Source: an uncultured virus (IMG/VR IMGVR_UViG_3300027896_000016)
Lineage: Duplodnaviria > Heunggongvirae > Uroviricota > Caudoviricetes
IMG/VR virus record: IMGVR_UViG_3300027896_000016
DNA length: 64,000 nt
Reading direction: 5' to 3' (one strand)
Under the pieces are notes generated by a model. It was given only the letters and a program-made list of their open reading frames with translations, was not told the DNA's origin and searched no databases. The position numbers were made by a program, and so were the translations under genes. Within the stretch, counting starts at the first letter, position 1. Each line of letters opens with the position of its first letter. Below, piece by piece: positions 3,522-27,707 of the stretch.

Positions 3522-4700
3522 TTAGTCTCCTTCGGGATTTAGAATAACCTTAATATGCCAGTGTTTTAAGAAATTGTCCAATATATCTCGAATTAAATCT
3601 GTACTAAATGAAGAACCAGCATTTGATCTACTAAGTATTTCGGTATATTGCCTTACTGTTATTGTATTATAATTAATATTATATTCTTTAAAGAAATCAA
3701 ATAAAGTTTGTCCGTGTATTTCAAGAGGTCTAGGTCTAATATAAGAACCAGAATTTTCAAATTTTTTGTTATCTATTTTGTCTACTATTTGGTCTATAAA
3801 TACTTTTTTGCCAAAATCAATTGATTGCATCCATTGACCGATGCGCTTTTTATATTCAGGTTTAGGGTTACTATTAGAATGACCTTCTATGTCTACAAGT
3901 TCCCAAAATTTGTCAGTATAATCAGTAGCATTATGGTATCTCGGTACAAATGCCGCTGTTACATGCGGTTTATTTTCCTGGTCGCGCAACGAAATAACGT
4001 TCATGTTATATTCTAAAACTTGGTCCCAATAAGAGGCAATACAATGATTCATTCGATTGCCTTCAACCGTGATATCATTCTCAGTCGTTATTTCTTGTAT
4101 TGTCCAATTGTCGGGCCAAGTATAAAGTATATTTGGCGTGTAAATCGGCTCATAGACTAAATTTTTGCCTTTTTCGGCTTGGGCTTTGTGCCAGCGAATA
4201 CTGGCAAGTTGGGCTTGTATAAAGTCATAGCTGGCAAGTCTAGGATGTTCGGCGTTGTACCAGTCTATTAGTGTCCAAATTGTGCCTCTTAAATCTGATC
4301 GATCAACATAATCAATTGTTTCTTCGTCATGATAATTTAAAATTGGAAATTCTTGATCATATACAATTTCACCCTTAATCATATATTTTTTAGTTCTATG
4401 TTTAATTATTTGTATTGCTACCCAATCTATCATTTCTTTAGCTATATTAACATCATTTAGCTTTAATACTCTTAAAAATGCTTCTTCATAATAATCTAAT
4501 TTTATTTCTTTTGGTTCAAAACTGGCCGCTAAATCTTGTATTTGGCCCAAATTTAGCCCGCGATTTTTGCGCAGTTCGTTAACTATCTTGCCCTGTATCT
4601 TAGAATCTGACAGAAATTTGACAAAATCTACAATTTCTTGCGAGATGCCCAATCTTGCAAGATAATCTTCGACGGGATTTTGGCGATATCTATAGCGCAT
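3522..4700 (-). CDS. PcfJ-like domain protein (paralog 1)
   Basis: EGNRMNHCIASY ... ISLRD..NKPHVT motif; N-terminal MRYRYRQNP. Confidence 0.75.
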   Translation of the reverse strand: MRYRYRQNPVEDYLARLGISQEIVDFVKFLSDSKIQGKIVNELRKNRGLNLGQIQDLAASFEPKEIKLDYYEEAFLRVLKLNDVNIAKEMIDWVAIQIIKHRTKKYMIKGEIVYDQEFPILNYHDEETIDYVDRSDLRGTIWTLIDWYNAEHPRLASYDFIQAQLASIRWHKAQAEKGKNLVYEPIYTPNILYTWPDNWTIQEITTENDITVEGNRMNHCIASYWDQVLEYNMNVISLRDQENKPHVTAAFVPRYHNATDYTDKFWELVDIEGHSNSNPKPEYKKRIGQWMQSIDFGKKVFIDQIVDKIDNKKFENSGSYIRPRPLEIHGQTLFDFFKEYNINYNTITVRQYTEILSRSNAGSSFSTDLIRDILDNFLKHWHIKVILNPEGD

Positions 4701-10145: not shown

Positions 10146-11384
10146 TTAGTCACTAACACCTATGCCTAGTTCTTTAAGTTTTTTATTGACTTTTTTGATA
10201 CACTTTAATCTTATTTCGTTTTTAATTCTTTCATAATTATGATTATCTTTTACAATTTCATAACTTAGATCTATATTTATTAAATCACTTAATTCTAACG
10301 TATCAGAACAAAGATATTGAAGATTTTTACAACGATCTAAAATTTCATAATAATATTCTTCTAATTCTACAATTAAATCGCCATATTGCTTAGAATCTAT
10401 ATTTTTGCCTTTAAATAAATCATAGTCTTTTAGAAATCTATTATCTATCTGATTAAGTTCTAATCGAATAAAATTTATTATACGCCGATTTTCTTTTAGC
10501 CAATCCAAAGTTTTGAGCCATTGGCCAATGCGTTTTTTATAAGTCAATTTCGGATCACTATTGCCATAGCCGCGAATTTCTCTCGCAAAATATTGACCTT
10601 CCGTATCTCTACTTAAATTTATTGTAACATGTGGCATATTTTCATCATCACGCAAACTAAATATTCGTCTTTCTTTTGTTTTGACAAATTGATAGTAAGC
10701 TCCTACACAGTTATGCATTAAATTACCTTCTACTTCTAAGTCATGAGCACTTGTAATTTTTATAATGAACCAATTGTCAGGATAAACAAATTGTATAAGA
10801 TCTTTGTCTATTGGATCATACTTATTATGCTTAGTTAAAATATCTTTATGCCATTGTAATGTTTCTTTTTGGGCTTGCACAAAATCATAACTGGCGATTT
10901 TTGGTTTCTTATCCTCATACCAATCGTAAATTTCGTTAATTAAATTATCAAAATGTAATCCTCGAAAATTTGCGCAATTTTCAAAATCAAGATATTTAAT
11001 TTCATTAGTTTCTGGAATAACAATTGGAAATTTATGTATAAGATAAGTTTCATCTACAAATTCTACTATTTTACCAGTTCTATATTTAAGCAATTGCGTT
11101 TTTAGCCAATGATAAAAATCCGAGTCTACGTTATTATACCTATAAATATTAAGTATGTTCTCTTCATCATAATCCCAAGTTATTTCTTTTGGGCCGAAAC
11201 TTTCGGCTAAGTCTTTAATTTCGGCCAATGCCAAATTTTTATTCTTACGCAGTTCATTTACTATCTTGCCTTGTATCTTGCTATCGGCCAAATTTTTGAC
11301 AAACGTTATGATCTCTTGCGATATGCCTAATTTCGCAAGGTAATCGTCAACCGGGTTACGCCTATATCTACAAGCTCGCAACAT
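10146..11384 (-). CDS. PcfJ-like domain protein (paralog 2)
   Basis: EGNLMHNCVGAY...FSLRD..NMPHVT; N-terminal RYRRNP. Confidence 0.75.
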   Translation of the reverse strand: MLRACRYRRNPVDDYLAKLGISQEIITFVKNLADSKIQGKIVNELRKNKNLALAEIKDLAESFGPKEITWDYDEENILNIYRYNNVDSDFYHWLKTQLLKYRTGKIVEFVDETYLIHKFPIVIPETNEIKYLDFENCANFRGLHFDNLINEIYDWYEDKKPKIASYDFVQAQKETLQWHKDILTKHNKYDPIDKDLIQFVYPDNWFIIKITSAHDLEVEGNLMHNCVGAYYQFVKTKERRIFSLRDDENMPHVTINLSRDTEGQYFAREIRGYGNSDPKLTYKKRIGQWLKTLDWLKENRRIINFIRLELNQIDNRFLKDYDLFKGKNIDSKQYGDLIVELEEYYYEILDRCKNLQYLCSDTLELSDLINIDLSYEIVKDNHNYERIKNEIRLKCIKKVNKKLKELGIGVSD

Positions 11385-14420: not shown

Positions 14421-14963
14421 TTACGCTCCTACTGTCATTAGATTGCTTGCTTTTGCCGCTCGCTTGTCCTCAGAGTTAAGCCAATATATACCTACTATTG
14501 CTATCGCCGCTGCGTCGGCTTCGTGTTCTGTAATATTGGCTTCTAGGCCGAACATGTCTTTTATTTTGGCTATCATATCTAACTTAGAACTTAGGCCATA
14601 ATCTGTCAAAGCCTTTTTAACAACATTCGGCAATATTTCGATAAGTCTAATTTTATTATCAAATGCACAAAGTTTAATCACGCCTATATTTTCTGTTATA
14701 TTATTGCCAACAAAGCTAATATGGGCATTTATTGATTTTTCTATGACCAAAATATTTAGCTTATTGTTAACTATAAGCTCTTGTGTCTTGTTATATAATA
14801 ACCTAAAACGCTCGGGGTCTTTCTCTTCACCTAAGAACTTAAATAGGCTTATATCTAGTAATTTTGCTGCACCGTCACTAAATTCCAAGGCGCATAGGCC
14901 GAAATTTCTGAAACTTGCGGGATCTATGCCGCCTATGCGAATATTATTGTATAAACTAGGCAT
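14421..14963 (-). CDS. ruvC: RuvC-like Holliday junction resolvase
   Basis: GIDPA, LVIEK, P..VKKALT.YG..SK, HEADAAAIA. Confidence 0.85.
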   Translation of the reverse strand: MPSLYNNIRIGGIDPASFRNFGLCALEFSDGAAKLLDISLFKFLGEEKDPERFRLLYNKTQELIVNNKLNILVIEKSINAHISFVGNNITENIGVIKLCAFDNKIRLIEILPNVVKKALTDYGLSSKLDMIAKIKDMFGLEANITEHEADAAAIAIVGIYWLNSEDKRAAKASNLMTVGA

Positions 14964-20108: not shown

Positions 20109-20459
20109 CTAAAATACCTCGTATGCAGAAACGCCACCAGTATTAGTCAAAATTGCGTCAAGAGGAATAGGAGTTTGTGCTTTTTGTATTTTTTCTATTC
20201 GTTTACCTAATTTTTGTTCAGCTTTATGGAGCCACTTTTGTTTTTCTATTTCTTTCTTATCCGCTTGTGACATAAATTTACCAATTGCTTTTTGTATTTT
20301 TGATGCCTGTTTTGCGGCAACTTTTTGTGCTTTAATATATGGGTCAGTTTTACCCAATCCCAATAATCCAGGACTCTTGCTTATAAATTTCTTATAGATC
20401 ACATAAGCGCCAACAAAAATTGCAGCGTAAGTAATTATTTTCTTAGTTTTAGCTGTCAC
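20109..20459 (-). CDS. membrane protein, KKY..GPG.LGLG family (GTG start)
   Basis: MTAKTKK, TM, SPGLLGLG; ends GGVSAYEVF. Confidence 0.75.
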   Translation of the reverse strand: MTAKTKKIITYAAIFVGAYVIYKKFISKSPGLLGLGKTDPYIKAQKVAAKQASKIQKAIGKFMSQADKKEIEKQKWLHKAEQKLGKRIEKIQKAQTPIPLDAILTNTGGVSAYEVF

Positions 20460-20460
20460 G

Positions 20461-21024
20461 TTAGAAAACCTCGTATTCCGACACACCACCGGAAGCGGCG
20501 ATATTCGCATTAATTGCATCGGCAGTCGTCACAGCAGAATCCGCCGGAATCGGTGTTGCGGTTAACGTAGTTGTAACGATTGTATCGGGCGCAACAATTG
20601 GTGCAGACTGTTCAAGAGTCGGCTGCGTTGGCGCAACAACCGGAACAGCCGCAGTTGTAGCATGTCGCTTGCCTACCGGTAAGAAAGATAGCTCTTTGAT
20701 CCAGCCCTTGCGTACCGCTTGCTTATAGCCCCAATAGAAAACTATGCCAAGACCAATGTACATGAAAACTTTACTCGGTGAAAAATTTTTGCGATACGCC
20801 ATCTTCGATCTCCTTCTTCTAAAATTGCTCACACTATTATTGTCGAAAATTGACCACTTAGCCAATTCTCGCGTTTCTTGTTTGGACTTTCGCGGCACTC
20901 GATATTTTCCCAACCTACCGCTTAACAATTCACGACCAGTATAAGAGTCTCTCTGAGAAAAACGACTCGCTCGCGCCCGCCCTTTGCGAGAATACAAATC
21001 AAAAAAACTAATAATTTCGCCCAT
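20461..21024 (-). CDS. membrane protein; a second in-frame start with strong RBS at 20802 (MAYRKNF)
   Basis: TM; ends GGVSEYEVF. Confidence 0.7.
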   Translation of the reverse strand: MGEIISFFDLYSRKGRARASRFSQRDSYTGRELLSGRLGKYRVPRKSKQETRELAKWSIFDNNSVSNFRRRRSKMAYRKNFSPSKVFMYIGLGIVFYWGYKQAVRKGWIKELSFLPVGKRHATTAAVPVVAPTQPTLEQSAPIVAPDTIVTTTLTATPIPADSAVTTADAINANIAASGGVSEYEVF

Positions 21025-21032
21025 TTTGCGCC

Positions 21033-21461
21033 TTAACCCTGTACTAAACGGGCCTGTTGAACAAATGCTAACTGATTAAGCTGATTTACGAAATTCTCAG
21101 TATCACCAGCAACATAAGTAATCGGAATTCGTGCCAGAAGACCATATGTAGTCTTTTTGCCCTTAGTAACACTATCAATATAACTAGTATCAAAACTCGG
21201 TATCATGAATTTAAGATCGGTTATATCCTGTTCCTTCGGTGCTTTCTTAAATTCAATGAAAATCTTATATGACCCCGTAACAGTTGGACTAGGCACAGAA
21301 CCAGTAGTAGGGTTAACACCGGGAGCATAAGGCGTCGTGTTCAAAAACCTACTCGCAAAATATTTATAACCATAGTATAAAATAAGACCAACGCCGACTA
21401 ATTCAATAATTGTCAACCAAATTGGCCCATTTTGCTTAATTTGTCTCTTGCCACTTGGCAT
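21033..21461 (-). CDS. N-terminally anchored membrane protein
   Basis: MPSGKRQIKQNG, TM. Confidence 0.75.
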   Translation of the reverse strand: MPSGKRQIKQNGPIWLTIIELVGVGLILYYGYKYFASRFLNTTPYAPGVNPTTGSVPSPTVTGSYKIFIEFKKAPKEQDITDLKFMIPSFDTSYIDSVTKGKKTTYGLLARIPITYVAGDTENFVNQLNQLAFVQQARLVQG

Positions 21462-21486
21462 GTTAATTCCCCTATTCTATCCAAAA

Positions 21487-22173
21487 TTAGGCAAACATAC
21501 CAAGACGATTTCGTCGCTGACGATTTGCCGCAACAGCCTTGACACTTCGCGGCTTTCGTGCGTAGAACATTCCGCCAAGAACAACAACTCCTACTGCCGC
21601 AAGAATAACATAAAGAAGAGTATTGTCAGACTTAGGAACTGATATAATCGGCTTAGGTGTTGCCGCTGTCTTTTTTGACATAAATGCCGGTGCAACTGAA
21701 CCTGCAACAGCAGCAGTTACTCCAAGCGTCTTCAGAACATTATCCCATACACTACCAGTAGAGGCAGCGGGTGTAGGAGTCATTGGGCTTAATTTAATAG
21801 AAGACTGTGCGCCAGGAGTATATTTGAATGAACTTGCCGAAACATCAATCGGCGGAATATAAGCACCCGGAACGCTCGGGAAAATACTTGTAAGATCATA
21901 CCAAGTCTGTGCTGCGGGTGCAGCAGTAGCCGGTGCAGCAGGTGCGGGCGTAGTATAAGTAGGTGTAGAAGCAGGAACCGGATTAGGATATAATGCGTTT
22001 ATAGCATCAAAATTAGGCAATGGCACAGAAGATTCATCTTGCGCCAAATAACCAACATTCCCAACATTGCCAATACCAAACAACTGATTACTTTCGACCA
22101 GTTCGTCAAACGACATATCTTCGGGATTTAAATCATCTGGCATCAAATCATCCGTAGTTAACCAAAGACTCAT
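21487..22173 (-). CDS. Pro/Ala/Thr-rich protein with C-terminal TM
   Basis: start MSLWL after AGGAG; TM then ANRQRRNR. Confidence 0.75.
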   Translation of the reverse strand: MSLWLTTDDLMPDDLNPEDMSFDELVESNQLFGIGNVGNVGYLAQDESSVPLPNFDAINALYPNPVPASTPTYTTPAPAAPATAAPAAQTWYDLTSIFPSVPGAYIPPIDVSASSFKYTPGAQSSIKLSPMTPTPAASTGSVWDNVLKTLGVTAAVAGSVAPAFMSKKTAATPKPIISVPKSDNTLLYVILAAVGVVVLGGMFYARKPRSVKAVAANRQRRNRLGMFA

Positions 22174-22207
22174 GACATTTCTCCTAATCAAAAATTGTTC
22201 AAATTCT

Positions 22208-22540
22208 CTATCGCTTCATCACGTAAATGACAGCAACAGCAGAAAGACCAATTACTAAAAACCACTTGTATTTGTCCAAGAAACTTAAAGCGGAATTTGA
22301 CGAACGATATGCCGAAGCTAATGTCGGATTATAACTTGAAGAAGCACTGTCGAAATTCTTGGCAATATAATTGAATATCGTCGGATCGTACTGTTGCAAA
22401 ATCGGCAATAGTTGCAATTCTTGAACATAACCCGCCGTATGATGTGTAAAGCTTGTCGGCACTCCCGGCGTATCGGGATTGCGAACAATTATACCCTGTG
22501 CAATAGCATAGCCTTCAGCTTGATCCAGTTCAATTGCCAT
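22208..22540 (-). CDS. C-terminal TM protein whose 5' end is duplicated at 23870-23900
   Basis: MAIELDQAEGY...; RBS AGGGG. Confidence 0.8.
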   Translation of the reverse strand: MAIELDQAEGYAIAQGIIVRNPDTPGVPTSFTHHTAGYVQELQLLPILQQYDPTIFNYIAKNFDSASSSYNPTLASAYRSSNSALSFLDKYKWFLVIGLSAVAVIYVMKR

Positions 22541-22579
22541 TGTAATTCCCCTATCTAAATTTACAGAGTGCTGTTGTCT

Positions 22580-23604
22580 TCAGGCAACAGAATTTTCTTT
22601 TTTGTAAAATCTAAAACTACTATAACATTTAAATTTAATATCTTCCAATTTAGCGCTTTGACAAATTCTTTCGCCATTTATAAGTGAATGTAAACTTAAT
22701 TTATTTTTAAAAGGTGTACCGCCAATATAACAAAGTCCATATTTAGGATGAATTACTAAACTTCCTCGTTTCAATCCAAGACTTCTTGTACCTCCATATT
22801 TTAATCGTTTTCCACCTTTAGAAAACTGAAGATGATGTAATTGTCTCCTATGAAATCTCAATGGAACCACAATTAATAAAGATTTATTATCTGGATTTTT
22901 CTTTCCGCCAACTTCACTATAAGCTAAAATCCAACTATCAACATTATGTGCAGAAAATTCTTCCTTTAATTTTGAACAATTTTTTCTAATCCAAGTCGAT
23001 TCCTTAAATCGGATGTTTCCCGTCCTTGCATAATTTTAACAGAAGCAATCTTTTTAAGTTCTTCATAAAACCACTTTTTACCAACTTCCAACAAACTAAA
23101 ACTAGAATCCCACCTTCTTTGACCAGTTTTCTTAGCCTTAACATCCTCAACTATAAATTGAGAAATTGGGAATATTTTAATAAATTTATTGACAATTCTA
23201 AGTTTTAACTGCCATCTAGCCTTAGTAGAAAACGGTAATTTTCTTCCTCTTCTATTTTGTCTCGGTTTTCTATATGGCGTTTTTCTAAATCTGCGAGCTT
23301 TACGCATATTCCTGCGTACCTCAACTGCGTCTTTTACCCAAGTAACCGCATACGATAAAACATTTAAATAAGTTTTCCTTTTTGATTTAACTGTAAATGC
23401 TTCTCTTTTACTCCCTGGATCAATACCTACTACTATAGGCTGCATATTTCTGGCAGAAGGTTCTACGTTTAACCTAACACAAAATACGCCTAGCTTATAA
23501 AAATAGGTAGCCTTTCTACTTCTAATCCACTTAGAGGCCCTTCTACGAGTAGTTGGCATAAGTGGTTTATTATTTTTATCTACAACTGGAACCATGTTTT
23601 TCAA
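22580..23604 (-). pseudogene. isrB: isrB, frameshifted by a 1-nt deletion near 22980
   Basis: KPLMPT, GIDPGSK, IVEDVK, then SAHNVDS in a shifted frame; GAAAAAATT versus GAAAAAACTT in the intact paralog; no HNH. Confidence 0.85.
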
Positions 23605-23611
23605 ATTACAT

Positions 23612-23869
23612 TTCCTTAAAATCTTTGAATTGTTGTAAGCAATTCAAAACTCGAATAAGTATATACCCCTTCGACACTGACAGCCACAGGGATTACGGAT
23701 TAGGGGAGCGTCTGTAATATGTCTTACCCTGCCACGAGTTAGGCTGTTCAGTTTGATTGGACTTTTGTTTTACCTCCTTTCCAATCCATGTCTAGTTAAC
23801 ACTTACGTCGGAAGGTCGCCTATTGGCTAGGTCATTCCGAACCATCTTTTAAAAACAATGGCTGTTAAC
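23612..23869 (-). ncRNA. omega-RNA scaffold of element 1
   Basis: GTTAACA...TGTTAAC closing stem followed by TAGAC; colinear with 25660-25917; directly upstream of isrB. Confidence 0.8.
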
Positions 23870-23909
23870 AATTTTCGGCCTGATCTAGTTCGATTGCCAT
23901 TTTACACCC

Positions 23910-24056
23910 CTATCTTAGTAATTTGCCATTTGGATCATCCAGACCAAACAGGCCCGGCCATTTTTTCTGCAAATTTCCGACAATAATATATAATAAAATA
24001 CCGCCAATTACAAATAATACAATTTGTTCAACCTGTTTATTAGTTTTACTTGACAT
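23910..24056 (-). CDS. small TM protein
   Basis: start MSSKTNK; TM; PGLFGLDD. Confidence 0.65.
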   Translation of the reverse strand: MSSKTNKQVEQIVLFVIGGILLYIIVGNLQKKWPGLFGLDDPNGKLLR

Positions 24057-24066
24057 ATTTATCGCC

Positions 24067-24591
24067 TTAACTGCCTTTCGGTCGGCCACGCTTTTTGGGC
24101 ACAACTGGCGCTGGCGAAATTTCTTCTATTTGTGTCACTACAGGCTCTAATTCTTTGGTTTCATCTTTTTCTACTTTCGGCGCGGGTGCAATTTTGGGTT
24201 CAGGAAGTTTAACAATTGCAAGGCCGACCGAATCGCCAATTCTAACAATTGTTATAACCGTGCCAACTTCTAGATCCTGTATTTTCTCATAAATCGGCAT
24301 TATCAATTCGGCACATGAATCGTGAAGATTGGGATTATTGTTAGTTTTCTGCGCGATATATCGGCCAATCGTTACGCAAAACGCATTAAAAGTTCGCCCC
24401 ATTCTTTCCGCGATTTCGCCCAAACGACCGTCATAATCACAAACAATTGCCTGTGCGCAATCCTTGTTCGAATCTATTCCGACAAAGCGATTCGCACAAC
24501 CGCATTCGCATTTTTCGCGGCACATTTGGTCTAACACCAAGATCTCGTTCGGATCACAATCTTTTGACTCAAACGGCTTTAGCATTTTCAT
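24067..24591 (-). CDS. Cys-rich protein with C-terminal AT-hook-like motif
   Basis: CREKCECGC; ends KKRGRPKGS. Confidence 0.7.
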   Translation of the reverse strand: MKMLKPFESKDCDPNEILVLDQMCREKCECGCANRFVGIDSNKDCAQAIVCDYDGRLGEIAERMGRTFNAFCVTIGRYIAQKTNNNPNLHDSCAELIMPIYEKIQDLEVGTVITIVRIGDSVGLAIVKLPEPKIAPAPKVEKDETKELEPVVTQIEEISPAPVVPKKRGRPKGS

Positions 24592-24614
24592 AAATATTTC
24601 GCTAAACCATTATT

Positions 24615-25649
24615 TTAAGCAACAAATGGATTAGCGATATCCTCCTTTCTGTAAAATCTAAAACTATTAAATGCCCTAAATTTAACATCTTCTAATTTCG
24701 CGTTTTGACAAATTCTTTTACCGTCTACAAGTGAATGTAAACTTAATCTTCCTTTTAATGTTCCACCAATATAACAAAGACCATATTCGGAATGATCCAC
24801 TAAACTTCCCCGTTTCAAACCAAGACTTCTTGTTCCTCCGAATAAACGTCGTTTTCCTCCATGAATAAATTTAAAATAATGTAATTGTCTTCGATGAAAC
24901 CCCAAAGAAACCAAAATTAACAAAGATTCATCTTCTGGTTTTTGTTTACCACCAACTTCGCTCCAAGCTAGTAACCAACTATCGACATTATGTGCAGAAA
25001 ATTCTTCTTCTAATTTTGAATAAGTTTTTTCTAATCCAAGTTGATTTCTTAAATTATATGTATCCCAACCTTGCATAATTTTAATAGGAGCAATTTTACC
25101 GAGTTCTTCATAAAACCATTTCTTTCCAACTTCTAAAGGACTAAAACTAGAATCCCATCTTTCTTGTCCAATCGTTTTAGCTTTAATATTTTCAATTATA
25201 AGTTTGGAAATTGGAAATATTTTAACAAGTTTATTAATAATTCTGAGCTTCAACTGCCATCTAGCTTTAGTAGAAGGAGGTAATCCACCCATTTTTCTAT
25301 TTTTTCTTTGCTTTCTACATGGAGTCTTTCTAAAACGACGATTTTTACGAGCACTTTTTCTATTTTCTACTCTATCTTTAACCCAAGTAACTGCATATGT
25401 TAAAATATTCAAATGTGTTTTCTTTTCTGATTTAACAGTAAATGCTTCTCTTTTACTACCTGGATCAATACCTACTACTATAGGTTGCATATTTCTTGCA
25501 GAAGGTTCTACATTCAATCGAACACAAAATATACCATGTTTCCAAAATGGAGTAGCTTTTCTACTCTTAATCCATCTAGCCGCTCGCCAAGATGTTGTTG
25601 GCATAAGCGGCTTTCCATCTTTGTCTACTACTGGTACTGATTTTGTCAA
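24615..25649 (-). CDS. isrB: IsrB RNA-guided nickase (PLMP domain, split RuvC, bridge helix, no HNH)
   Basis: 344 aa; KPLMPT, VGIDPGSK, Arg-rich RKSARKNRRFRK, IIENIK, HNVDS. Confidence 0.9.
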   Translation of the reverse strand: MTKSVPVVDKDGKPLMPTTSWRAARWIKSRKATPFWKHGIFCVRLNVEPSARNMQPIVVGIDPGSKREAFTVKSEKKTHLNILTYAVTWVKDRVENRKSARKNRRFRKTPCRKQRKNRKMGGLPPSTKARWQLKLRIINKLVKIFPISKLIIENIKAKTIGQERWDSSFSPLEVGKKWFYEELGKIAPIKIMQGWDTYNLRNQLGLEKTYSKLEEEFSAHNVDSWLLAWSEVGGKQKPEDESLLILVSLGFHRRQLHYFKFIHGGKRRLFGGTRSLGLKRGSLVDHSEYGLCYIGGTLKGRLSLHSLVDGKRICQNAKLEDVKFRAFNSFRFYRKEDIANPFVA

Positions 25650-25659
25650 TTTCTTTTCC

Positions 25660-25917
25660 TTAAAATCCTTGATTAGCTGTAAGCAGGTTCAAGGAAACCA
25701 TACTGTGTACAACCCTTCGACACTGACAGTCACAGGGAATGCAAACTAGGGTGGCATTCGCAATGTGTTTTATCCTGCCACGGATTAGACTGTTCAGTTT
25801 GATTGGAACTTTCTTTTGTCTTTTCCTCCTTTCCAATCGTTGTCTAGTCAATGCTTGCGTTGAAAGTTGCCTTTTGGCAAGGACTTTCAAACCGTTATTT
25901 ATAAAACGGTCATTGAC
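25660..25917 (-). ncRNA. omega-RNA scaffold of element 2
   Basis: GTCAATG...CATTGAC closing stem then TAGAC; compensatory changes relative to copy 1. Confidence 0.85.
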
Positions 25918-26209
25918 CCGCCTTAAGTTTAAAGTGGTCAGTTTTTATTTTTTCAATGTGTTTTTTGGCCGAGACATAAAAGTCTGTATTGTGTTTGTTT
26001 AATAGTTTTAAAATAGCTTGAATTTTCTTAATATTTTCAGTTAGATCGTCCGTATCCAAAGTATCCAAATTTTCATAAGCATTGTCGATATTATTTATAA
26101 GCATAAGAGCCATATGTTTAAGCGTTTTATATTCAGTTTCAGCTTGGTCCAGATAACTTGTTTTATTATTTTCTTTTCCTAAATCTGTGAGTTTGCTAAG
26201 TAAATCCAT
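25910..26209 (-). CDS. helical hypothetical protein whose stop codon lies inside element 2
   Basis: start MDLLSK after AAGGAG; ends AAG GCG G|GT CAA TGA. Confidence 0.7.
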   Translation of the reverse strand: MDLLSKLTDLGKENNKTSYLDQAETEYKTLKHMALMLINNIDNAYENLDTLDTDDLTENIKKIQAILKLLNKHNTDFYVSAKKHIEKIKTDHFKLKAGQ

Positions 26210-26226
26210 AATGCTCCTTTGCCGCA

Positions 26227-26262
26227 CCTTCTAGGAGAGAGCTAGGCTCAATCCCCTAGAAG
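26227..26262 (-). terminator. stem-loop downstream of the holin-like gene
   Basis: CCTTCTAGG...CCTAGAAGG inverted repeat; no clear U-tract. Confidence 0.4.
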
Positions 26263-26278
26263 GTTTCGGCAATTAGAG

Positions 26279-26536
26279 TTATTTCGGATTTGCCAATAAA
26301 GCCGTCTTTTTAAGATCCACTGCGTTTGCAATAGAACTTGTCTTGCCCATTGAGCCGCTATCGGCAATACCTTGGCCAACGCAGAAAGAAGATACCATAG
26401 CAGCTATTCCACCAATTACATACTTCATATTCTCTGGAGTAATATTACTATATAATGCAATAACCGTTACGCAAATCATACCGGTTATACAAACTACCAT
26501 CTTTTTGCCGCCAAACGTTGCGAATAAGCTATTCAA
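26279..26536 (-). CDS. holin-like two-TM protein
   Basis: GGKK followed by two TMs and GQGIAD. Confidence 0.6.
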   Translation of the reverse strand: MNSLFATFGGKKMVVCITGMICVTVIALYSNITPENMKYVIGGIAAMVSSFCVGQGIADSGSMGKTSSIANAVDLKKTALLANPK

Positions 26537-26537
26537 T

Positions 26538-27707
26538 TTAGATCTCCCGTAGAATCGACGGAATCCTCATGTAAACAATGTCCGCATTTCGAACGTTTGC
26601 ACCATCACCATGATCGACCGAAATATTTCCGGTTCCCATTGCAGTAGCAACAAACCATACACAAGTAGCCTGATTATTCTTGGAAATCGGAATCACGATA
26701 TCAGGAGCAACTGAAACGCCGTTTTCCAGCAAGAGAGGATTATAAACATCCGGCGTCCCGCCAGTTACCGCAACGTTCTGTCTTACTTCGATATATTTCT
26801 GAGTAGCAGAAGTGGCAGTAAATATAGTCGGTAGGAACCAAGTAAATAGATCATGGTTAGCGGGGGCACCTGAACCATTGATATACTGTAAGTTACCGGT
26901 AGCAAGCGGCGTAGTCGTAACGCCAGAACTGCGATCAATTGCACCAAGACTGGCTTTAGGAACACACCACGCAAATGTCGGAATCTGTAGAACGTTTGCT
27001 TGCGTGAGCAATGCGTCATTATTAGTTCCAGCATTTGAAATAGAAATAGCCTTTGCGCCATGACTATACTTATTTTGTGCAGTACCAAAACGCTGAACAG
27101 CAATCGTGATAGTCGCATCAGTTACAGCCGCACCATTCTGAGTAACACCGATTGTACCAGCAAACGAATGGCCAGTCGCAGGAGTTAAAGTCATAGCACC
27201 AGTACCGTTTCGAGTACCGGAAGCAATAAGAGCACTTCTTGCAGCATCAAGATAAACACTCAGTGTAATATTAAGCGCACCGTCTTCAACGAAAGTCAGA
27301 TAACACATTCCTGACGGAGAACAATCAAAATCTTTGTTAAATGCTGTCAAAGTCCACGGTGTAGTAGCGGGAGCAAGACGAGTGCTTGCATCCAAAACGA
27401 TATCGACGGAAAAACCAGCATCGCCCGCAAAAGTTGACATAATAGAATGTACACGCATCATAAGAATATCGAAATTGCGAGCATTACCAGCATCGCTATG
27501 ACCAACCGTTACGGTCGCACTGTAAGGTATAAGACTTGTCGAAACATAAGGAAAACAACCGTTGTCAGACTTCGGAACAGCAAAAACAACATCGGGCATA
27601 ACCGCAGTTTCAACACCACCAACTAAATCTCGCAATCCATGTGTAATAGCCGTACCCGCCGCCGCAATAGCAGTGTTCTGAACGAGATGGAAAAGCTTTA
27701 GTGCCAT
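26538..27707 (-). CDS. beta-rich structural protein with internal repeats
   Basis: start MALKLF after GGAGGG; repeated VPKS/N.RN.DI..MR..SI units. Confidence 0.75.
   Translation of the reverse strand: MALKLFHLVQNTAIAAAGTAITHGLRDLVGGVETAVMPDVVFAVPKSDNGCFPYVSTSLIPYSATVTVGHSDAGNARNFDILMMRVHSIMSTFAGDAGFSVDIVLDASTRLAPATTPWTLTAFNKDFDCSPSGMCYLTFVEDGALNITLSVYLDAARSALIASGTRNGTGAMTLTPATGHSFAGTIGVTQNGAAVTDATITIAVQRFGTAQNKYSHGAKAISISNAGTNNDALLTQANVLQIPTFAWCVPKASLGAIDRSSGVTTTPLATGNLQYINGSGAPANHDLFTWFLPTIFTATSATQKYIEVRQNVAVTGGTPDVYNPLLLENGVSVAPDIVIPISKNNQATCVWFVATAMGTGNISVDHGDGANVRNADIVYMRIPSILREI

Follow-up and report, generated by a model that had tools for sequence, protein, structure and literature searches.

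How can a phage gene remain whole when an RNA-guided nuclease element occupies its beginning? The question is raised by a stretch of 64,000 nucleotides (hereafter the window) from an uncultured virus of the Caudoviricetes (IMG/VR record IMGVR_UViG_3300027896_000016), in which an element of the IsrB/omega-RNA type, here called E1, lies between two diverged copies of the start of one small gene, here called gene Y. Our answer, to which we assign a probability of roughly one half, is that the present locus may descend from one illegitimate join between an allele of gene Y occupied by the element and an intact, diverged allele. A first-pass annotation of the same DNA had read the intact copy as a recoded, self-immune version of the gene start. 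All genes in this part of the window lie on the minus strand; the features needed below, including a second IsrB element (E2), are the following.

22208-22540, minus strand: gene Y, an orphan of 110 aa whose C-terminus is hydrophobic, taken from the list of open reading frames (ORFs)
22506-22509, minus strand: ATGC at the site homologous to the insertion point, which fits a target-adjacent motif (TAM) of the NTG type and not the ATGA dominant in relatives
22510-22556, minus strand: right (downstream) repeat copy, the functional start of gene Y (MAIELDQAEG)
22557-22590, minus strand: right end of E1, similar to the left end (LE) of such elements, placed by comparison with E2, the relative L001 and other loci
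22580-23604, minus strand: isrB pseudogene of E1, from tblastn in two frames, alignment to E2 and Pfam RRXRR
23605-23869, minus strand: omega-RNA scaffold of E1, from its start conserved in 38 loci and from covariation
23870-23915, minus strand: left (upstream) repeat copy, from the sequence and the scaffold boundary given by conservation in 38 loci
23910-24104, minus strand: gene X, a small ORF that ends within the left copy, its stop codon being part of AGATAG
24592-25917, minus strand: E2, intact and canonical, with isrB at 24615-25649 (344 aa), from Pfam, PDB and alignment

A diverged duplicate of a gene start flanks E1

E1 (22557-23869) is bounded exactly by two copies of AGATAGGGG, a spacer and ATGGCAATYGAACTRGATCARGCYGAA, which are separated by about 1.3 kb. 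The left copy, read from 23915 to 23870, is AGATAGGGG TGTAAA ATGGCAATCGAACTAGATCAGGCCGAAAATT and is followed by GTTAAC, the first bases of the scaffold. It contains the final two gene X codons (AGA TAG), a Shine-Dalgarno (SD) sequence GGGG, the spacer TGTAAA, and an ATG with codons 2-10 and one further base (ATG GCA ATC GAA CTA GAT CAG GCC GAA AAT T, encoding MAIELDQAEN); this reading frame terminates within the scaffold (..AAT TGT TAA). The right copy, from 22556 to 22510, is AGATAGGGG AATTACA ATGGCAATTGAACTGGATCAAGCTGAAGGCT followed by ATGCT, and has the same AGATAG and SD GGGG, the spacer AATTACA, and again an ATG with codons 2-10 and one base (ATG GCA ATT GAA CTG GAT CAA GCT GAA GGC T, then ATG CT..). 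The first-pass annotation had described two flank copies with 7 differences in 31 coding nucleotides, the right one with a ribosome-binding site of its own, and this description is correct to the base. Four of the seven differences are synonymous third positions at -23, -17, -11 and -8 from the junction, and the other three, at -4, -3 and -2, change AAT (Asn) to GGC (Gly).

The pair of copies was recovered at 84% identity by a repeat search on the window. When the sequence upstream of the scaffold was locally aligned with that downstream of isrB, E1 scored 21.5, against a maximum of 14.5 among 524 mismatched locus pairs; in a wider test E1 was second of 67 loci, with a 99th percentile of 13.0 among 658 null pairs and one null pair at 20.5. 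The duplicated gene start is real and beyond what chance would give. A caveat concerns its upstream part: ATAGGGG-N6-8-ATG is also the initiation context of two further genes of the window (17410 and 21461), so the 27 coding bases speak for duplication more strongly than the ribosome-binding region does.

Identity of the element

E1 is, as the first-pass annotation had stated, an IsrB element with an omega-RNA; it belongs to the IS200/IS605-type family. The Pfam family RRXRR (PF14239) matches the N-terminal ORF of E1 with E=4.2e-33 and the E2 protein with E=5.4e-32. For the E2 protein the best PDB match is IsrB 8DMB (E=3.6e-34), which covers residues 4-315, whereas IscB structures match only residues 5-121 (or 7-155), and no HNH family is found among the Pfam hits; given a match of this extent to 8DMB, IscB matches confined to the N-terminal third and the lack of an HNH hit, we classify the protein as IsrB and not IscB. 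The E1 gene reads as two ORFs in different frames (22966-23604 and 22580-22870, the latter also given as 22580-22990), and tblastn with E2 IsrB covers residues 1-217 and 206-337 in these two frames. Relative to E2, one nucleotide has been deleted immediately behind the A6 run at 22980-22985; this break is the single lesion in about 1 kb of isrB. The E1 pieces are 68-77% identical to E2 and to two IsrB proteins encoded outside the window (P0003 and P0004, described below).

The approximately 265 nt upstream of isrB in E1 and E2 align with the same region in viral relatives and share a common fold, with compensatory changes in 27 of 34 consensus pairs (20 sequences); the omega-RNA of E1 retains 31 of the 34 pairs. 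Rfam gave no omega-RNA match for it, either at the gathering threshold or at E<=1. The E1 scaffold begins with GTTAAC, which pairs with a later GTTAAC, and the equivalent pair in E2 is GTCAAT/ATTGAC. Among 38 aligned loci conservation starts at GTCAAC.ACC (GTTAAC in E1, GTCAAT in E2) and the sequence to its left is unrelated. Since conservation starts at the scaffold start, the left boundary of E1 is placed at 23869/23870 and the 3' end of the left copy is the guide; its last 20 nt are presumed to be the guide of the omega-RNA. Passages of Meers et al. (2023) on IscB likewise describe an omega-RNA made of a scaffold at the transposon end joined to a 5'-adjacent guide outside the boundary, in agreement with the claim, already made at first pass, that the scaffold's 5' flank supplies the guide. 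Among the Pfam hits of the 72 ORF translations of the window there is no Y1_Tnp, the family of the Y1 transposase TnpA; its absence is usual, since the same passages of Meers et al. (2023) give a tnpA near only about 1.5% of iscB genes. Promoter and terminator scans remained at chance level.

The right copy lies beyond the canonical end

Relatives were fetched by IsrB alignment from IMG/VR (80 loci, and 80 more by a second alignment, of which 11 were new) and from bacterial genomes, mostly cyanobacteria (80 loci). Most of them have a hairpin after or across the isrB stop, a short AT-rich tail, and then ATGA directly. E2 ends with ..GCGAAATATTT followed at once by ATGAAAATG, whose ATGA is the start of a 174-aa gene (24067-24591), and L001 ends with ..GTAAAATTTT followed by ATGA. 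E1 has subterminal hairpins at both ends, the first omega-RNA stem serving as the right-end (RE) hairpin and the LE hairpin CTGTTG..CAACAG (22571-22590), also recovered in the terminator/promoter scan, spanning the isrB stop. Its LE tail is CACTCTGTAAATTT (..CTGTAAATTT), with 22557 as the canonical last base. The element therefore ends with ..GTAAATTT and continues into AGATAGGGG (AGAT) with no adjoining TAM; an NTG motif, ATGC, occurs only after the 47-nt right copy, whereas in E2 ATGA abuts this end. Because most relatives end directly at ATGA and the end of E1 is followed by AGATAGGGG, the "recoded" copy lies outside the canonical element, which weakens the first-pass reading.

Among 65 loci, the nearest downstream ORF with 40 codons or more began with ATGA in 44, ATGG in 13, ATGT in 6 and ATGC in 2, and 6 loci had no such ORF; it overlaps the isrB stop in 12 loci. 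A TAM tally, in which a loose LE motif had to be followed by a first ATG within 40 nt, gave for 82 viral loci ATGA 40, ATGG 5, ATGC 4, ATGT 1, no ATG 9 and no motif 23, and for 70 bacterial loci ATGA 52, ATGT 2, ATGG 1, no ATG 2 and no motif 13. Where an ATG is present, A is thus its next base in 40/50 viral and 52/55 bacterial loci. The IsrB TAMs given in the part of Hirano et al. (2022; PMC9581776) consulted are NTGA for DtIsrB, NTG for four orthologues and NTGG for one, and the GstIscB TAM in the passages of Meers et al. (2023), TTCAT in other-strand notation, is consistent with the ATGA tally. The first-pass annotation had invoked an NTG/ATGA-type TAM, with ATG following the original allele; ATGC does fit NTG, but relatives prefer ATGA, and for this clade ATGC would be at best a weak TAM.

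These tallies also yield a simple rule, namely that elements of this clade normally sit right 5' of ATGA (loci L003-L242); in viral contigs the next ORF usually begins with this ATGA (44/65). In the 12 overlapping loci the isrB stop and the next start form ATGA, a classic coupled stop/start motif.

The copies differ as two working alleles would

The two copies are identical at 9 of 9 positions of AGATAGGGG, which holds the gene X stop and the SD, and differ in the spacer by 3 mismatches in 6 positions and an indel. In codons 1-9 all four differences are synonymous, while 16 of the 81 possible single changes are (P=0.0015). Synonymous-only differences, a kept stop and SD and a scrambled spacer suggest two alleles that each evolved as a working gene, and not a dead copy beside a live one. 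The single lesion in isrB implies that selection acted on the element until a short time ago. Since the repeats are, in contrast, about 25% diverged, the divergence probably predates the juxtaposition of the copies. Compared with the 20-nt guide, the right copy has 6 mismatches, 3 of them within the four TAM-proximal bases.

Flank duplications are rare but recurrent

To survey flank duplications, we compared the scaffold start and its upstream region with the isrB stop and its downstream region in 145 distinct loci (67 from the first viral set, including E1 and E2, 11 new viral loci and 67 bacterial loci). This survey, which had been proposed at first pass, yielded one further case. Flank duplication was found in two loci, E1 (score 21.5) and L059 (31.0), both in viral sequence and both with a second copy that ends at NTG; it was found in none of the remaining 143, E2 among them. 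L059 is on a 67.8-kb IMG/VR viral contig that carries three IsrB copies and is unrelated to the contig of E1. Its direct repeat of 38 nt is ATTCGTGGAAGAACATGCATATTTAA[T/C]GCTAGG[A/T]TG[C/T]T, the copies being identical at 35 of 38 positions, with mismatches at -2, -5 and -12, all three inside the 20-nt guide window. The left copy abuts the scaffold, which starts with GTCATAACCCC. ATGG comes after the right copy, with which an ORF of 142 aa opens from a GTG. The LE of this element is missing: homology to its sister copies ends where the right repeat begins, at its first base, and the isrB ORF, which is intact, continues into that repeat. A search of IMG/VR with the downstream gene of L059 returned only itself. 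The architecture is rare but recurrent, with two independent cases.

The next-best matches of the survey (L016, L063, L035, L015, L017, L050, L150, L124 and others) were rejected, as they reflect the likeness of the element's own two terminal hairpins, and L061 (an exact A-rich repeat of 15 nt) and L152 (16/18 nt) were within the null range or of low complexity. In the eight loci named, the RE-side omega-RNA hairpin and the LE-side hairpin are near-copies (CCCCnnnCTAAAGnnnGGGGCTT compared with ..GGGGTTT), and in several of them the two hairpins differ at paired stem positions with each stem staying paired. In L018 (2222-2253), the 32 nt left of the scaffold are a diverged copy of a scaffold start (CAACTACCCACAAATAAATTCGTGGGCTTGAA), which looks like an insertion next to or into a remnant element.

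Origin of the present locus

In the reading that we favour, one phage lineage (allele D) would have received E1 or its ancestor in gene Y, 31 nt from the start of the gene and beside an NTG motif; the empty form of this allele would read ..GCCGAAAATT joined to ATGC. Allele D would run through the last base of the element, 22557, and be fused there to an intact diverged allele (allele R), which is picked up at 22556 and opens with the final two codons of gene X. Only one abnormal junction would be needed, because the right boundary T/ATG merely marks the end of the left copy. The join would make gene Y whole again with its own SD, and would leave a guide, set by the left copy, that has no matching target in cis (6/20 mismatches). 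With an LE that has no TAM, the element would be neither excisable nor re-homed at this site; it would be immobilised and decaying, as the frameshift in isrB indicates. Two alleles further imply that element-free types ..GCCGAAAATTATG.. and ..GCTGAAGGCTATGC.. would exist, with bodies of gene Y that differ throughout. A join that restores gene Y would be favoured in a phage replicating by recombination, and the RuvC-type resolvase encoded at 14421-14963 is consistent with recombination-dependent replication. The L059 locus, at which the join removed the LE altogether, points to illegitimate recombination rather than transposition.

Three other explanations were tried and rejected. Canonical insertion ahead of the ATGG of gene Y would require two extra segments, each separate from the other; had TnpA re-inserted an extended element, tandem and not flanking repeats would be expected; and a regulatory (TldR-like) guide against gene Y would have 6 mismatches in 20 positions.

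Several observations weigh against a join of two alleles. Neither element-free relatives of the X-Y junction nor relatives with allele D or allele R were found in the collections searched. A blastn search with 21000-27000 against 50,697 phage records gave no match; protein Y gave 40 pattern matches in IMG/VR, none of them confirmed; a degenerate DNA pattern covering both copies gave 0 matches there, and no relative of the neighbouring DUF7715 protein was found in IMG/VR. In JGI metagenome contigs, gene Y was found only in one contig of 6,362 nt (L002), identical to the window over its whole length. A word-indexed search of 5.8 billion clustered proteins with protein Y returned only itself, and a full HMMER search over 1.84 billion representatives yielded, besides protein Y, one 1267-aa protein (E=5e-05, given without the matched stretch); protein Y had no Pfam or PHROG match. 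One DNA sequencing run contains the stretch and may be where it came from; its Logan contigs show no empty-site joint, a result that says nothing either way, and 21000-22600 is not covered by the pieces listed. Microhomology at the join is at most 1-2 nt. The junction 22556/22557 lies outside the contigs listed from the sequencing run, and rests on the contig of the window and on the 6,362-nt contig, which is 100% identical across both junctions and may share its sample. Finally, 3 of the 7 coding differences of E1 fall in the four junction-proximal bases (P=0.028), and 2 of the 3 mismatches of L059 in the final five positions of the 38-nt repeat (P=0.040), in tests that were chosen after the data were seen and on small numbers. 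Such TAM-proximal clustering would be predicted by selection for escape from self-targeting and not by simple divergence of alleles: the right copy with its NTG would otherwise be a target of its own guide, so escape from self-nicking would crowd the mismatches at the TAM-proximal end.

This clustering is shared by two other explanations, both of which we consider improbable. One is the gene-sparing homing cassette, close to the first-pass proposal, in which the guide would target the original allele in competing phages, the element and the recoded start would be copied in together, and the carrier would be immune. The NTG after the right copy in both E1 (ATGC) and L059 (ATGG) is in line with it, as are the intact isrB of L059, with all three mismatches in its 20-nt guide window, the omega-RNA of E1, which looks intact (31/34 pairs), and the intact paralogous IsrB proteins of E2, P0003 and P0004. 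Non-restorative OMEGA homing between phages or plasmids is deemed theoretically possible in the part of PMC13565253 consulted. But the nuclease gene of E1 is frameshifted, and trans-complementation would have to come from paralogues that are only 68-77% identical; the right copy is beyond the canonical end of the element; the divergence reaches the spacer and -23, both beyond the span of a 20-nt guide; canonical ends are seldom followed by ATGC (4/50 viral, 0/55 bacterial); and the architecture occurs in only 2 of 145 loci. In a speculative form that we likewise consider improbable, phage IsrB elements may become gene-sparing, self-immune homing cassettes: the left flank would preserve a guide to the ancestral allele, the seed-mismatched duplicate on the right would keep the gene functional and shield the carrier from its own nickase, and in mixed infections the unit would be copied into competitors with the ancestral allele or would damage them, with E1 and L059 as snapshots of the process. 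Of the self-immune recoding proposed at first pass, the mismatch pattern stands (6/20, with 3 in the four TAM-proximal bases, and the same layout in L059), whereas the divergence outside the guide looks allelic and not directed, so the earlier interpretation is partly supported.

The other explanation is a duplication in situ, by which an aberrant insertion or repair would have doubled the 38-47 nt left of the site and the copies would have diverged afterwards, escape mutations being favoured in the copy that bears the TAM. Possible routes are a nick-primed copy of the element re-annealing upstream, or a staggered break filled in as for a target-site duplication. That the repeats flank the element exactly agrees with such a duplication, and seed clustering at both loci fits escape from self-nicking; L059, with 35 of 38 positions identical and all 3 differences in the guide window, is the locus to which it would apply best. 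At E1, a dead left copy should change at any codon position, but codons 1-9 differ only synonymously (P=0.0015), and repeats that are about 25% diverged contrast with the single lesion in isrB. To our knowledge, IS200/IS605 elements make no target-site duplications, and none was seen in the other 143 loci.

An assembly artefact, by chimeric joining of strain variants, or a chance likeness of initiation regions is very improbable. The contig does come from a metagenome, the sample holds many diverged IsrB copies, the Logan contigs of the DNA run break in repeats and in this region, and ATAGGGG-N-ATG is a recurrent initiation context. Yet the 6,362-nt contig belongs to another assembly collection and is identical across both junctions, no shared k-mer would connect AGATAGGGG with the end of the element, chance falls far short of explaining 27 coding bases that differ only at 4 synonymous sites, and L059, on an unrelated contig, has the same topology.

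Comparison with known systems

E1 resembles the IsrB/omega-RNA OMEGA systems, as described in the parts of PMC9581776 (DtIsrB, PDB 8DMB) and Meers et al. (2023; IscB) consulted, in an RRXRR/RuvC protein that lacks HNH and is about 340 aa long, an upstream structured RNA that measures about 265 nt and takes its guide from the 5' flank, hairpins at both ends and, in E2 and most relatives, NTG(A) after the far end. It differs from them in its diverged 47-nt direct repeat, an LE without TAM and a frameshifted isrB; further differences are that no TnpA was found in the window and that Rfam models miss this omega-RNA. E1 is unusual for its long direct repeat with diverged copies, for an LE that has lost its TAM and for the restored start of the interrupted gene. 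In a full-text literature search, which left subscription journals outside, we found no paper on flank duplications at phage IsrB, IscB or TnpB elements.

Phages and islands that integrate into tRNA genes carry a replacement gene end and leave a truncated pseudo-copy on the other side. Here too an insertion is made harmless by a duplicate gene end beside the element, but tRNA-gene integrators use site-specific recombinases with an identical core as the crossover, whereas at E1 the copies are diverged, a 5' end is replaced and the element is of the IS200/IS605 type. The target-site duplications of DDE transposons are 2-15 bp long, identical when formed and produced by staggered cuts. Like them, the repeats flank the element exactly; unlike them, the repeats are of 38-47 nt, and those of E1 have diverged by 25% in the manner of coding sequence.

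The role ascribed to OMEGA nucleases is to serve their transposons by cutting the donor site that has become empty. A further parallel is the intronless homing by free-standing endonucleases of T-even phages (SegF and others), for which the part of PMC13565253 consulted describes a nuclease gene beside a conserved gene, a target copy that differs by substitutions in the carrier, cutting of the related phage's copy and co-conversion of flanking markers. For E1 the specificity would come from an RNA guide set by the left flank instead of protein-DNA contacts, and the difference between self and non-self would be carried by the duplicated gene start. OMEGA homing or exclusion between competing phages is, in the same part of PMC13565253, only discussed as a possibility. 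The locus illustrates one way in which a compact phage genome can survive an intragenic OMEGA insertion, and it offers a natural triplet of guide, target and escaped target with which discrimination of self from non-self by IsrB is directly testable.

E2, other IsrB copies and the phage context

E2 is 2 kb upstream of E1, with about 78% DNA identity and about 70% protein identity to it, and has no flank duplication. The 174-aa gene downstream of it is the DUF7715 gene. The start of the E2 scaffold provides the last two codons and the stop (GQ*) of the upstream ORF 25910-26227. In the inferred empty site of E2 (..CTTAAGGCGG joined to ATGAAAATG..), an SD-like AAGG lies 9 nt ahead of the second ATG, which suggests that the insertion cut the DUF7715 gene off from its likely ribosome-binding site. 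Just upstream of E2, 26138-26152 (minus strand; CTGGACCAAGCTGAA) in a 105-aa ORF (..SYLDQAETEY..) matches CTGGATCAAGCTGAA of gene Y (LDQAE) at 14 of 15 nt; with a chance expectation of 0.10 per window at up to 2 mismatches, the match may be due to chance or to a short conversion tract. P0003 and P0004 are intact IsrB proteins, 79% and 76% identical to that of E2; their records place them on a contig 134,025 nt long, the length also recorded for the proteins of the window. This is probably the window's own contig, and the phage would then carry at least four diverged IsrB elements.

The window is nearly without database matches. None of 20 neighbouring proteins matched PHROGs, a weak tail-collar match and the RuvC resolvase are the only phage-typical Pfam hits, and no RNA sequencing run is listed as containing the stretch. 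The IsrB relatives are mostly cyanobacterial, and the phage of the window is from freshwater. Other Pfam hits in the window are an AAA ATPase, two PcfJ-like paralogues (3522-4700 and 10146-11384), a HATPase, a transglutaminase-like protein and a few DUFs. Small ORFs at 20109-21024 and 23910-24104 (both minus strand) share short motifs, two of them ending in GGVS(A/E)YEVF, and gene X and the ORF 20109-20519 have in common a PGL(F/L)GL..DP motif after a hydrophobic stretch; these small ORFs may form a membrane-protein family without database match.

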